20,521 nucleotides of DNA from a virus. Positions 1 to 4,138 of the stretch are shown here, piece by piece (position 1 is the first letter of the stretch; each line of letters opens with the position of its first letter). The stretch is taken from UHGV virus genome UHGV-0255412. One strand, given 5' to 3'. A model generated the notes under the pieces. That model was not told where the DNA came from, ran no database searches, and saw nothing but the letters and a program-made list of their open reading frames with translations. Made by a program: the position numbers and the translations under genes.

Positions 1-2144
1 TACATCTGCACACCATGCCGCCGCATTATGACGCACTGACAACAGACAAGGACCGGAGGAACGCACCGGATACGGAACTGCTGCCGGGCGCAATCCTTCG
101 CCTGACCTGTGCGGAATGGTGGAAACGCAAACTGTGGCTGTTACGTTGCGAGTGGAGAGAGGAACAACTCCGCGCCGCCTGTCTGGTTTCCAGAAAAACA
201 TCGCCCTATCTGAGCCAGGACGCGTTAAGCGAGTTTCGCGCACAGCGCGAGAAAACTCGCGATTTTCTGAAAAGTTTCATGCTGGAAAACGAAGACGGCT
301 TCACGATTGATCTCGAGACAGTGTATTACGCGGGAGTCAGTAACCCGGTTCACCGTAAGGCAGAAATGATGGCCACCATGAAGGGACTGGAACTTCTGGC
401 CGAAGCCCGTGGCGACAAAGCGGTGTTTCTGACTGTCACATGCCCGTCAAAATACCACGCCACAACAGAGAACGGTCATCCGAACCCCAAATGGAACGGG
501 GCCACCATGCGCGACTCCAGCGATTACCTGGTTAACACGTTTTTTGCGGCGGTCCGCAAGAAACTGAACCGCGACGGCCTGCGCTGGTATGGCATCCGCA
601 CGGTGGAGCCTCACCATGACGGCACTGTGCACTGGCATATGATGGTCTTTGCTCATCCGGAAGAAATCGACAGCATCGTGGCCATCACCCGCGATATTGC
701 CATTCAGGAAGACCGCCACGAGCTGGGCAATGATATTACTCCGCGCTTTAAGGCGGAGTATGTCGACGGCTCAAAAGGCACGCCAACCAGCTACATCGCC
801 ACCTACATCGGAAAGAACCTGGACAGCCGCGCCGTGGATGACATCGACCCGAAAACGGGCAAGCCACGCGTTGACCACGAAACCGGAAAATCAATGGCCG
901 AGAGTGTGGAGCGCGCCATCGGCTGGGCGCGCCTTCATCGGGTCCGCCAGTTCCAGTTCTTTGGCATCCCCTCCCGTCAGGTGTGGCGTGAACTGCGCCG
1001 CCTTGCCAGCCAGATGGCACGCAACCCGGAAGGCCCGCAACGACTGAAAGATGACGCAATGGATGCGGTACTCGCTGCCGCCGATGCCGGGTGTTTTGCC
1101 ACCTACATTGAAAAACAGGGCGGCGTACTTGTTCCACGCAAAGACTACCTGATTCGCACCGCCTACGACCTCGCAGATGAGCTGAATGATTACGGCGAAC
1201 AGAGCGTACAGATTTACGGGATCTGGTCACCACTCATCGGGGAATCCTCCCGTGTGTGCACGCATCCGGATAACTGGAAACTGGTAAGACGTAAACCGGA
1301 AACGGAAGACAGCGCCCGCGAAAATGGTTTTGACCTTCAGGGCGGCCCTGCCGCCCCTTGGACTCGTGGCAATAACTGTCCCCGTGTACAGGAAACGGAC
1401 AACAACGGGACAGAACAGCCGGAAGAACGGCCAGCACCGTGGCCGCAGCTTCCTGACGGCGTTGACGTGAATGAATGGATGCGCTCACTGAAACGGCACG
1501 AACGCCGGGCGCTGATGCGTTCGCTGCGTGACAAACAGGCAAAAAACAGCAGTGATGAAATGCAGAACTGGACACAGAGCCGCAAACAGCCACGGCCTTT
1601 GCCTGATAACCACGAGTTACTCGCTAAAGAATGGCGGGAGTCTGCTGAATCTCTCGGCCTGCATATCGGTGAACAGCAGATGCAGCACCTGTTACGGGGC
1701 GGCAGTCTGTACGTTGACGGCAGCATCATTGCACCGCAGGGATTTGAAATTGTACGCAAACCGGATACCCGCCCGGACAGCCGAATCACGCAGCTCTGGC
1801 AGCGCCTGAGCCGTAATCATGGCGTAAGCAGCACGGAGATCCGCCATAACCCGGTCGCCAGCTATCTGGCACAGCTGGGGGCATCAGACCCCGAAGCAGC
1901 CGCACGCCTGGCATCCACACTTCAGCAGGACCAGAACACCATGAAAACACCCGTTACTGTGCTTTCTGACATGCTGCGCGCCATCCGCGACGCAGAGCAC
2001 GCACAGAGAATCAGTGAAACCACTGAACGCGCCAGCCGCAAAGCAGACCTGCTGCGGGGTGGCCTGACCAGCGGAAACAAAAAACAGACAGAAACGGGAC
2101 TCACGAATCCCGTAAATGAGCAAAAAACGCGCAGTGATATATGA
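1..2144 (+). CDS. A: Replication initiation endonuclease gpA (rolling-circle HUH nickase), 5'-partial at window edge
   Basis: Reading frame is open from the window start (frame 3), with no in-frame stop before the first Met at 15. Contains an HUH-type motif (TVHWHMMVF) and a tyrosine pair (YIATYIGKN) typical of P2 gpA-family initiators. Aligns from memory to the central and C-terminal part of P2 A. Position upstream of the accessory locus matches P2 synteny. Confidence 0.85.
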   Translation, partial: HLHTMPPHYDALTTDKDRRNAPDTELLPGAILRLTCAEWWKRKLWLLRCEWREEQLRAACLVSRKTSPYLSQDALSEFRAQREKTRDFLKSFMLENEDGFTIDLETVYYAGVSNPVHRKAEMMATMKGLELLAEARGDKAVFLTVTCPSKYHATTENGHPNPKWNGATMRDSSDYLVNTFFAAVRKKLNRDGLRWYGIRTVEPHHDGTVHWHMMVFAHPEEIDSIVAITRDIAIQEDRHELGNDITPRFKAEYVDGSKGTPTSYIATYIGKNLDSRAVDDIDPKTGKPRVDHETGKSMAESVERAIGWARLHRVRQFQFFGIPSRQVWRELRRLASQMARNPEGPQRLKDDAMDAVLAAADAGCFATYIEKQGGVLVPRKDYLIRTAYDLADELNDYGEQSVQIYGIWSPLIGESSRVCTHPDNWKLVRRKPETEDSARENGFDLQGGPAAPWTRGNNCPRVQETDNNGTEQPEERPAPWPQLPDGVDVNEWMRSLKRHERRALMRSLRDKQAKNSSDEMQNWTQSRKQPRPLPDNHELLAKEWRESAESLGLHIGEQQMQHLLRGGSLYVDGSIIAPQGFEIVRKPDTRPDSRITQLWQRLSRNHGVSSTEIRHNPVASYLAQLGASDPEAAARLASTLQQDQNTMKTPVTVLSDMLRAIRDAEHAQRISETTERASRKADLLRGGLTSGNKKQTETGLTNPVNEQKTRSDI

Positions 2145-2191
2145 AGCGCGCACAAAGCAGGCAAAAACGGGATTTCAGAATCCCGTAAACG
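2094..2191. repeat. Two copies of a ~26-bp palindrome-containing element (gaaACGGGAcTcacgAaTCCCGTaaa at 2092-2116; aaaACGGGATTtcagAATCCCGTaaa at 2168-2193)
   Basis: Read directly from the sequence. The second copy is a perfect 8-bp inverted repeat with a 4-nt spacer; the first is an imperfect version inside the last codons of gene A. The copies are ~76 bp apart and lie just upstream of the parM-like gene. Confidence 0.6.
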
Positions 2192-2220
2192 ATTAATTAA
2201 TCAACATAAGGAAAAGCGAC

Positions 2221-3180
2221 ATGAAAATTTGTATCGACGACGGCTCCACCAACATCAAGCTGGCATGGACTGAGAACGGCGAACGCCGCAACGCCATCAG
2301 CCCGAACAGCTTCAAGTCGGAATGGTCTGCGCCGTTCGGTGGCACGCAGCCCGCGAACTACATGCTTGATGGCGTGCGCTATGGTTTTGATCCGGTCAGC
2401 GATCGCTTTGTCCAGACGACCGACACGCAATACCAATACAGCGATGTGAATGTCATTGCCATTCATCACGCGCTGGTCAAATCAGGCATCACGCCACAGG
2501 AGGTGGATGTGGTTGTCACCCTGCCACTGAGCGAGTATTTCGACACAAACGCACAGCCGGACATGGCCAACATCAACCGCAAAAAAGCGAACGTTATGCG
2601 CCCGGTGGAGTACCAGAACGGTGAGGCATTCACTATCCGTAACGTGCGGGTTATGCCTGAATCCATTCCGGCAGGCTTTAAGGCACTGGCTGACATGAGT
2701 CCGTTTGAATCCCTGCTGATTGTGGATTTGGGCGGAACCACGCTGGATGTGGCAAAGGTTCAGGGACAACTGGCAGGTATCAGCCAGGTGTTTTGCGATC
2801 CACACGTAGGCGTTTCCCTGATGGCCGATGCCGTACTGTCGGTGATGGCCACTAACGGTATGCGTACCAGTCACCACATCGCCAATACCATTATCGAACA
2901 TCGCCATGATGAAGCCTGGCTGCGCCAGCACATCCACAATGACGCGCATTACGTCAGCCTGATGGCGGTTATTCGTGAAAAGGAAGAAACACTGAAACAA
3001 CGCGTGATCCGCGCGCTGGCGGGTTTTTCGGGTTACGGGCGGGTGATGGTTGTCGGTGGCGGGGCGGAGATTGTGGCACCCGCTATCCGCGAAGCCTGCG
3101 GAGTTAATGCGACTTTCATCGCGGACGAGGTGCCACAGTTTGCTCTGGTTAATGGGCTGTACGCAATGGACAAGGAGTAA
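2221..3180 (+). CDS. parM: ParM/StbA-family actin-like partition ATPase
   Basis: N-terminus MKICIDDGSTNIKLAW...ISPNSFKSEW...YSDVNVIAIHHAL...EVDVVVTLPL...DLGGTTLDV closely matches my recollection of plasmid R1 ParM (MLVFIDDGSTNIKLQW...). RBS AAGGAA 7 nt upstream of the ATG. 319 aa, typical ParM length. Confidence 0.85.
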   Translation: MKICIDDGSTNIKLAWTENGERRNAISPNSFKSEWSAPFGGTQPANYMLDGVRYGFDPVSDRFVQTTDTQYQYSDVNVIAIHHALVKSGITPQEVDVVVTLPLSEYFDTNAQPDMANINRKKANVMRPVEYQNGEAFTIRNVRVMPESIPAGFKALADMSPFESLLIVDLGGTTLDVAKVQGQLAGISQVFCDPHVGVSLMADAVLSVMATNGMRTSHHIANTIIEHRHDEAWLRQHIHNDAHYVSLMAVIREKEETLKQRVIRALAGFSGYGRVMVVGGGAEIVAPAIREACGVNATFIADEVPQFALVNGLYAMDKE

Positions 3181-3184
3181 ACCA

Positions 3185-3496
3185 ATGACGACACCAACCA
3201 GACGGATAAGTTTCTATCTGAAGCCCGCCGCCGTCAAGAATGAAGGCGAAGCATGCGCATGGCTGGACAGCCTTACACCAGAAGCCCGCAAAAGCGGCCA
3301 ACGCGTGGCTTTTCTGGCCGGGCTGGCACTTCTGAAAATGAATCCGGCAGAGGCTTACCGACTGGCTGCATGGGCTGACGATGAGGCGTTATCAGTGACA
3401 CAAACCAGGACAGAGTGCCCCTTGTCACAGCCAGTACCAACCGCACAGATAACCAGTCAGATGGCTGGGAATATCCGGGCGTTGTTTCCTGAATAA
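3185..3496 (+). CDS. parR: ParR/StbB-like partition adaptor (DNA-binding)
   Basis: 104-aa ORF immediately after parM, with AGGAG 7 nt upstream of the ATG at 3185. The N-terminal pattern RRISFYLKP...LDSLTPEARKSGQRVAFLAGLALLK resembles R1 ParR (RRTIAFKLNP...LDSIPQGERSRLNRAALTAGLALYR). The longer track ORF starting at 3050 overlaps parM and was trimmed. Confidence 0.7.
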   Translation: MTTPTRRISFYLKPAAVKNEGEACAWLDSLTPEARKSGQRVAFLAGLALLKMNPAEAYRLAAWADDEALSVTQTRTECPLSQPVPTAQITSQMAGNIRALFPE

Positions 3497-3503
3497 CACA
3501 ACA

Positions 3504-3523
3504 TCAGGGCGAGTTCGCCCTGA
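3504..3523. terminator. Perfect hairpin (TCAGGGCGA-gt-TCGCCCTGA) between convergent genes; possible bidirectional terminator
   Basis: 9-bp perfect inverted repeat between the parR stop (3496) and the stop of the minus-strand 198-aa gene (3542). No strong T-tract on either side, so terminator function is uncertain. Confidence 0.4.
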
Positions 3524-3541
3524 TGCACAAAGCATGCTAAA

Positions 3542-4138
3542 TCAGAATTTAGTATGCAATTTATCTACCAATCGCTTAGCCTCATTAAGTAGTTTTTGGT
3601 ATTCCCTGCTATCGTTTTCCTGATCTTCATACGCTCGCCGAACACGCCATCGAAGAGCAAGGCATTTTAAATTCCGGTAAAACCTCGGATTACGCTTGCG
3701 GCACTCTTCCATATAAGGTTCAAAATGGACATCAAGAAAGATTAAGGTAGAACCATAAACACGATATAGATACCGCTCATCATACAAACCGTTATTCACG
3801 GCATTAGCACAACGCTCCCACTCATTAAAAATGAGTTTTAATGCTTTTGCTCCATCCGTTTGAGAATATTCCTCTTTTCCCCAATCAGCGATCGGAAAGT
3901 TATGGCGATCCTTATGAATACGTAGCACTTCTGACCACGCATCAACTATGTCCTTGTTACGTTTATATGCAGCCTCGAAATCCAACGAATTTTTTTCGCG
4001 CGACGTTTTTCTTTGATTTCGTATGCTAATCACTGCAATAAGCGCACCCGCAGCTCCTGGATAAAACGTAGGGCTGGATTCCCAAATACTGGAAAAAATT
4101 TTTCCTATATAACTAAGGGCAGAAAGAACTAGATCCAT
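3542..4138 (-). CDS. Hypothetical protein (198 aa) with a hydrophobic N-terminus; candidate accessory or defence cargo
   Basis: Long ORF on the minus strand within a visibly AT-rich segment that contrasts with the GC-rich phage backbone. N-terminal hydrophobic stretches (LVLSALSYIGKIF..., GAAGALIAVISI) suggest a membrane anchor. I recognise no family from the sequence. Confidence 0.6.
   Translation of the reverse strand: MDLVLSALSYIGKIFSSIWESSPTFYPGAAGALIAVISIRNQRKTSREKNSLDFEAAYKRNKDIVDAWSEVLRIHKDRHNFPIADWGKEEYSQTDGAKALKLIFNEWERCANAVNNGLYDERYLYRVYGSTLIFLDVHFEPYMEECRKRNPRFYRNLKCLALRWRVRRAYEDQENDSREYQKLLNEAKRLVDKLHTKF

Follow-up and report, generated by a model that had tools for sequence, protein, structure and literature searches.

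A palindrome pair upstream of parMR in P88-like phages as a putative parC centromere of variant architecture

The ParMRC locus is a textbook actin-based DNA segregation machine. We analysed a stretch of 20,521 nucleotides from the virus genome UHGV-0255412 (hereafter the window), in which two palindromes lie upstream of the partition genes parM and parR, and here compare them with the centromeres (parC) of the closest described systems. Characterised ParMRC centromeres are arrays of direct repeats, and the repeats bound are at least two of 11 bp in R1, two of 10 bp in pB171 and of 20 bp in pSK41 (PMC9426499). The R1 type of centromere, as seen in an IncF plasmid (L014), consists of ten tandem 11-bp direct iterons that flank a strong promoter. 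The par1 locus of pB171 has two ParR repeats upstream of parM (PMC9426499), so that a centromere with only two sites has a precedent; compared by description, its repeats are 10-bp direct repeats and not palindromes.

Two further systems belong to elements that are normally integrated in a chromosome. The srpMRC locus of the SXT/R391 integrative and conjugative elements is of type II and is used in the excised circular form. It differs from the phage locus in the sequence and spacing of its repeats, in its residence on a conjugative element rather than a phage and in SrpR, which has no detectable homology to ParR (PMC4489591); its centromere, srpC, is nevertheless the nearest architectural precedent. 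In the CGP3 prophage of Corynebacterium glutamicum, an actin-like protein and an adaptor that binds repeats upstream of its own operon (AlpAC/alpS) are needed for efficient replication of the phage DNA after induction (PMC4446434). The alpS site comprises 24 short TTAAnnG repeats in a Gram-positive host, and the proteins of this system are only distantly related to R1-type ParM and ParR, but for an integrating phage that carries a partition system CGP3 is the best functional analogy. In our literature searches we met with no description of the P88-type par locus or of its centromere.

The window represents a P88-like phage (genus Xuanwuvirus, family Peduoviridae, P2-like), and its positions 1500-3700 are 95-99% identical to Escherichia phage P88 and 13 other phage records. 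The genes follow each other in the order A, parM and parR, and the features of the locus are as follows.

15-2144, plus strand: 3' part of gene A (Phage_GPA), with the gene start before the window and the stop codon TGA at 2142-2144
2078-2119, plus strand: repeat unit 1 (42 nt), an A-rich asymmetric 5' flank CAAAAAACAGACAGAAAC, the palindrome and GTAAATGA
2094-2113, no strand assigned: site 1, palindrome ACGGGACT-CACG-AATCCCGT with the core GGGAYT-N4-AATCCC, within the last codons of gene A
2151-2192, plus strand: repeat unit 2 (42 nt), offset downstream by 73 bp from unit 1, with which it shares 79% identity
2167-2186, no strand assigned: site 2, perfect palindrome ACGGGATT-TCAG-AATCCCGT, in the intergenic region between A and parM
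2221-3180, plus strand: parM, actin-like segregation ATPase of 319 aa
3185-3496, plus strand: parR, putative adaptor and DNA-binding protein of 103 aa, annotated as partition protein

The order of cis site, parM and parR is shared with R1, as is a cis region of ~125-160 bp directly upstream of parM with an A/C-rich top strand and AAAC-type motifs. The phage ParM (Pfam StbA_N, 1.8e-82; ParM C-terminal domain, 3e-68) matched the R1 ParM structure 1mwk with E 8e-93 and is 47% identical to R1 ParM and 47-52% to plasmid ParMs; on these matches it is a true homologue of the R1-type actin-like ATPase. ParR belongs to the same Pfam family as R1 ParR (PF10784, Plasmid_stab_B, 1.6e-24), to which it is 24% identical, and the best solved structure for its family profile was that of pB171 ParR (2JD3, E 0.011). 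The protein consists of an N-terminal strand (TRRISFYLKP) and two helices, which a variable linker connects to a conserved C-terminal helix (NIRALFPE). In an AlphaFold2 monomer model of low confidence (pLDDT 57), the N-terminal strand region was unstructured and was followed by two helices and the C-terminal helix. The putative DNA-reading strand, RRISFYLKP, was shared by every ParR found and is invariant in all alleles of the clade, including those that are ~52% identical overall. The C-terminal motif NIxxLFPE, presumed by analogy to be the ParM-binding helix, is likewise retained in these alleles though the linker diverges.

In the architecture of the cis region the two systems differ. Instead of tandem direct iterons of ~10-20 bp of the R1, pSK41 or pCW3 type, which are absent from the phage locus, there are two dispersed 20-bp palindromes spaced by 73 bp, one of them inside the upstream gene, and no clear promoter. 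Judged by its sequence, the locus is a member of ParMRC by gene content and a variant by centromere architecture.

Two elements of ~26 bp that share ACGGGA had been noted in the original prediction, and both were recovered. A search of the window with the pattern ACGGGA-N8-TCCCGTAAA, allowing up to two mismatches, gave matches only at 2094-2116 (ACGGGACTCACGAATCCCGTAAA) and 2167-2189 (ACGGGATTTCAGAATCCCGTAAA). This pattern was expected 0.03 times by chance in the window, and none of 100 shuffles contained two matches. Site 2 is the perfect 8-bp inverted repeat recognised at the outset (8+8 with a 4-nt spacer), while 7 of the 8 positions pair in site 1 (ACGGGACT against AATCCCGT). The palindromes as first described were thus present, but the similarity is wider than the described elements and embraces both 42-nt units; since these share an A-rich asymmetric flank on the 5' side and a GTAAA flank on the 3' side and each contains a palindrome, they are direct repeats that each enclose an inverted repeat.

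The distances are regular, though not all as first given. The two sites are separated by 53 bp and their starts by 73 bp, where 76 bp had been proposed, and they are located at -127 and -54 relative to the ATG of parM. The hexamer centres are 10 bp apart, which corresponds to one helical turn, and 73 bp corresponds to ~7.0 turns, which places both palindromes on the same face of the DNA. From the end of site 2 it is 34 nt to the ATG at 2221 and 21 nt to the ribosome-binding site of parM (AAGGA, 2208), the latter a shorter distance than the ~30 bp originally stated. Site 1 does lie inside the last codons of gene A, as had been claimed, 10-17 codons ahead of the stop, and the last ~22 codons of A consist of repeat unit 1 and spacer DNA of the par module.

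For the comparison with relatives, phage and plasmid records, species-representative genomes and viral contigs yielded 244 related loci with a parM start and at least 170 nt upstream, which reduced to 101 distinct leader sequences. In 100 of these 101 there were exactly two sites, neither of which deviated from GGGATT-N4-AATCCC at more than one position. Their spacing was 73 bp in 95 of these leaders, 72 bp in four and 74 bp in one, and the distance from the end of the site 2 core to the parM ATG was 35-36 nt (36 nt in 98 of the 100). The complete 35.8-kb genome of P88 contained only the two sites, even when one mismatch was allowed, and this uniqueness argues against a global phage regulator. 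The motif, for which the original prediction had suggested a search elsewhere in the genome and in related phages, is conserved in position among the relatives, with a spacing of 73±1 bp and a fixed distance to parM. The single exceptional leader (L048) has lost site 1 to an IS66-type insertion and has a frameshifted parM, which indicates that its par module is decaying. The insertion in this locus (positions 1-1500, with a minus-strand TnpB-like open reading frame) is of the IS66 family and lies directly upstream of site 2, in the place of site 1.

The family consensus of site 1 is a perfect palindrome, ACGGGATT-CACA-AATCCCGT, from which the window deviates by a common C variant in the left arm. 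In a Hafnia relative with a leader region of 78% identity, both cores and the 73-bp spacing are retained, and the outermost AC/GT pairs of the palindromes are lost. Of the four hexamer arms, three had the lowest nucleotide diversity (pi), 0.005-0.02, as did the outer flanks of unit 1; it was about 0.09 in the DNA between the sites and highest, 0.13-0.24, in the 4-nt spacers. The two arms with a common polymorphism had values of 0.06-0.08, close to those of third-codon positions (0.08-0.11), and the pattern of diversity fits a constraint on the arms only in part. In three loci the same base change was observed in both sites, a G to A change in the left arm (L020) and a T in the right arm (L054 and L075), which suggests gene conversion between the units or joint selection.

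The upstream neighbours of the sites are not constant, and three contexts were distinguished: the canonical A tail, a different A allele together with other open reading frames (L093), and a shorter A followed by an extra Cys-rich open reading frame of 155 codons and then parM (L020 and L043). In all of L093, L020 and L043 the homology to the window starts at 2077-2080, which is the start of repeat unit 1. On this alignment unit 1 and the par module share their left end, and the convergence of the three junction types at this point indicates that both sites travel with parMR. In L020 and L093 the upstream open reading frame ends in the tail that gene A also has (...KQTxTGFTNPVNEQKTRxDI), in L043 the Cys-rich frame reads site 1 in another frame and stops with TAA just past the right arm, and in the Hafnia phage the TGA of gene A lies inside the site 1 spacer. 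Since the frame of site 1 differs or is cut by a stop among the relatives, the site is conserved as DNA, whatever its coding. From the junction sequences we conclude that site 1 is part of the par module and not of gene A. The extra open reading frame (993-1460 in L020, 388-831 in L043) is rich in CxxC motifs (MIKYCRQCGRELHYKEKFYFSDHICCRCRG...), and L020 and L043 differ in the frame in which its 3' end enters site 1.

The sites occupy the canonical position of parC, immediately upstream of parM-parR, and this position, their uniqueness, duplication, in-phase spacing and co-inheritance with parMR fit a type II centromere. We consider it probable that the palindromes and their flanks constitute the ParR-bound parC centromere of a type II ParMRC locus, and possibly also an operator. 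The original prediction had offered a ParR operator or centromere as one of three functions, and of these it appears to be the best supported, by the neighbouring genes, position, uniqueness, conservation and linkage.

The geometry of the half-sites also fits, since a distance of 10 bp between hexamer centres would suit two ribbon-helix-helix dimers in successive major grooves, as in other operators of ribbon-helix-helix proteins. The anatomy and conservation of the sites are established, as are their linkage with parMR and the homology of both of its proteins, and from the sequence we infer the binding of ParR, its stoichiometry, bridging, repression and time of action. ParR would be a ribbon-helix-helix dimer, with two dimers per palindrome and one on each GGGATT hexamer. 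It would nucleate on both palindromes, and contacts between ParR molecules would bridge or fill the 53 bp between them, giving a segrosome of ~125 bp that may extend from 2078 to ~2205. The conserved C-terminal helix of ParR would then capture the growing end of the ParM filament, and the filaments would push copies of the phage DNA apart. ParR may also damp the expression of parMR, because site 2 overlaps a weak promoter-like element.

The setting in which such a complex would operate is suggested by the distribution of the locus. The 156-bp junction between A and parM was found in 1208 of 5426 complete Escherichia coli genomes (22%), in up to three copies per genome and with O157:H7, O145, O121 and O111 strains among the carriers. 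As many as 1318 of the 1320 places of the junction were chromosomal and two were on plasmids. Since the element is almost always chromosomal, the partition system presumably acts on an extrachromosomal circle, either excised after induction or newly injected at infection.

Several observations weigh against a parC function. All characterised ParRs bind direct repeats (PMC9426499), and palindromes would be unusual for the family. No tandem iterons were detected in the region by Tandem Repeats Finder, and the phasing of A-tracts, which if significant would favour a wrapped complex, was not significant (AA, p=0.11; AAAC, p=0.02 uncorrected). We also considered a hidden R1-like iteron array or bent DNA, which, with no tandem array and no significant A-tract periodicity, is retained only as a speculative variant. 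All relatives belong to one tight and isolated clade, in which the ParMs are at least 94% identical and outside which identity drops to 52%, to plasmid ParMs, so that much of the conservation could reflect shared ancestry. More distant relatives, in which co-variation of ParR and its sites could be followed, were not found, and the search of genome contigs gave three loci. Finally, the first 20 codons of the divergent parR allele are identical because of a recombination breakpoint at ~3244, and not necessarily because of selection.

With regard to an operator, the promoter scan found no promoter at the threshold of the tool, and the best match in a looser scan was the following.

2174-2201, plus strand: sigma-70-like match TTCAGA-16-ATTAAT (8/12), with the first hexamer in the spacer and right arm of site 2

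This could be a weak parM promoter that is repressible by ParR. A generic repressor operator, the second function originally offered, is conceivable; the promoter-like match that overlaps site 2 is weak, and the scan gave nothing at its threshold. Because a convincing promoter was not found, an operator here is only a weak possibility. If parMR has no promoter of its own, its expression would depend on read-through from the early operon.

A more specific scenario, drawn by analogy and put forward only tentatively, is that a ParR of the R1 family reads paired palindromes, and that the locus is a compact two-site centromere, half of it in the 3' end of the upstream open reading frame. Its actin-like motor would move or separate an excised, replicating P2-like prophage, in the manner of CGP3 AlpAC or SXT SrpMRC, and would not serve to maintain a plasmid. 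This scenario in its entirety is possible, but clearly less probable than the assignment of a parC function alone.

Other explanations of the palindromes were weighed against the same data. They may act as nucleic-acid hairpins, either as stem-loops in the A-parM transcript with a role in processing, stability or translational coupling, or as minus-strand terminators, or as a priming signal on the displaced single strand in rolling-circle replication. Both palindromes can be folded into 8-bp hairpins, and the region folds better than shuffled sequences on both strands (z -4.0 and -4.6). In the RNA of the plus strand, the two frequent variants of site 2 (A to G at arm position 1, C to T at position 6 of the right arm) keep G-U pairing. 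However, none of the palindrome pairs had a compensatory double change, and the measures of structure and covariation (alifold, pair counts) equalled those of shuffle controls. About one-third of the loci, including the window, have an unpaired C-A in site 1, and other single-arm changes also break pairs. A T-run follows each hairpin on the minus strand and gives a terminator-like score, but no gene on this strand runs into the hairpins and the common variants of site 2 yield A-C mismatches in the RNA, whereas on the plus strand, which is the transcribed one, each hairpin is followed by AAA and not by a T-run. Rfam gave no match at E up to 1 within 1900-3700, and hairpins alone leave the conserved asymmetric flanks and the fixed 73-bp spacing unexplained. 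A role as hairpins is therefore unlikely. Intrinsic terminators as such were rejected, as the pattern was found only on the minus strand, where no gene ends, and the variants break the pairing.

The sites may alternatively be operators at which a protein other than ParR, encoded by the host or by the phage, regulates the expression of parMR or the end of the early operon. Palindromes with a half-site spacing of 10 bp would suit many dimeric regulators, and the sole promoter-like match, albeit weak, is overlapped by site 2. Against this, the motif is absent from the remaining phage genome, including the C/Cox control region, the sites remain linked to parMR at mosaic junctions where the upstream genes are exchanged, and the only candidate regulator gene that is consistently adjacent is parR. 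We regard control by another protein as improbable.

It is also doubtful, and in our judgement quite unlikely, that the palindromes lack a present function, whether as leftovers of a local duplication or as short conserved sequences that mark the junctions of recombining modules. The units do form a 42-nt direct repeat, the mosaic junctions lie at the edge of unit 1, and in a young clade conservation by descent is expected. Yet the spacers and the DNA between the sites vary like third-codon positions, in contrast to the spacing, the flanks of unit 1 and all but one of the four hexamer arms; the palindromes have survived in the Hafnia relative in spite of its 78% identical leader, and the identical changes in both sites of L020, L054 and L075 suggest that the copies are kept alike.

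The third function offered originally was a part of the replication origin, which in P2 lies inside gene A, as does site 1 here. In an alignment of proteins and DNA, the annotated nick site of P2 (GCCGCGCCTCGGAGTCCTGTCAATAACT), whose codons encode AAPRSPVNNC, aligned to GCCGCCCCTTGGACTCGTGGCAATAACT at 1345-1380, where the homologous peptide is AAPWTRGNNC, and this segment is the probable nick region of a P2-type origin inside gene A. Recognition of the palindromes by the A protein as part of such an origin is highly improbable and was rejected, as the P2 nick region (GCGCCTCGGAGTCCTGTCAATAACT) aligns ~730 bp upstream at ~1345-1380 and not at the palindromes, which are dissimilar to it, and as L093 has kept the palindromes with parMR next to a different A allele with its own nick-type peptide.

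If the assignment to parC is correct, a minimal centromere of two palindromes would show how few ParR sites, and in which arrangement, suffice for a complex that captures filaments, and it could serve as a compact tool for synthetic replicons. The prevalence of the locus in E. coli chromosomes raises the question of what partition of the plasmid type does for an integrating P2-like phage, and further of how a centromere in a chromosome stays harmless. Annotators could label the 125-bp stretch as putative parC, and anyone who engineers the end of gene A should allow for a probable cis-acting site that shares DNA with its last ~22 codons.

A further inverted repeat is situated between the palindromes.

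2128-2150, no strand assigned: central inverted repeat CGCGC-N13-GCGCG, which spans the stop codon of gene A

Its centre (2139) is near the midpoint between the sites (2140). In the alignment, where it was scored as helix 2, 97.8% of the cells were paired, with one double change and several G-U changes, which was not above the shuffle control. The double change, which preserves pairing (CGTGC/GCACG), was found in phage 520873, and the G-U-compatible changes in several relatives. The central repeat may belong to the same protein-DNA complex as the palindromes, although its role is uncertain.

Gene A is longer in P88 (940 codons) than in P2 (761 codons). In the window open reading frame, the Phage_GPA domain extends to about residue 272, and A residues ~273-709 lie beyond it. 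The last ~250 residues had no match in Pfam and, within the phage collection, matched only parM-carrying phages of this group; homologues of gene A without parMR were not found in that collection.

A mosaic breakpoint is located within parR at ~3244 (codon 20), up to which phages 705R2 and 569R5 and many prophages share the DNA of the window. Beyond it they carry the parR allele that is ~52% identical overall and has kept NIxxLFPE. Downstream of parR, the par transcription unit is likely to have its right end at the following repeat.

3501-3526, no strand assigned: perfect 11-bp inverted repeat, terminator-like, directly after the parR stop codon

It forms a strong hairpin at 3502-3525, and a second strong hairpin with a stem of 11 pairs is located at 3532-3557. 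Both are situated between parR and a convergent open reading frame on the minus strand (3542-4138), and the two hairpins at 3501-3557 are probably terminators.

The genome of P88 also encodes an integrase, the C repressor and Cox. One of the collected loci (L218, NZ_CP148288.1) is a circular sequence of 34,461 bp that was deposited as a plasmid of an E. coli isolate and is a complete P88-like phage, with integrase, C, Cox, A, parM, parR and structural genes. A toxin gene of the hok/gef family (MokW-like) is present in P88 (L098, NC_026014.1) at 34928-35068, so that P88 has homologues of both stability functions of R1, parMRC and killing of the hok/sok type.

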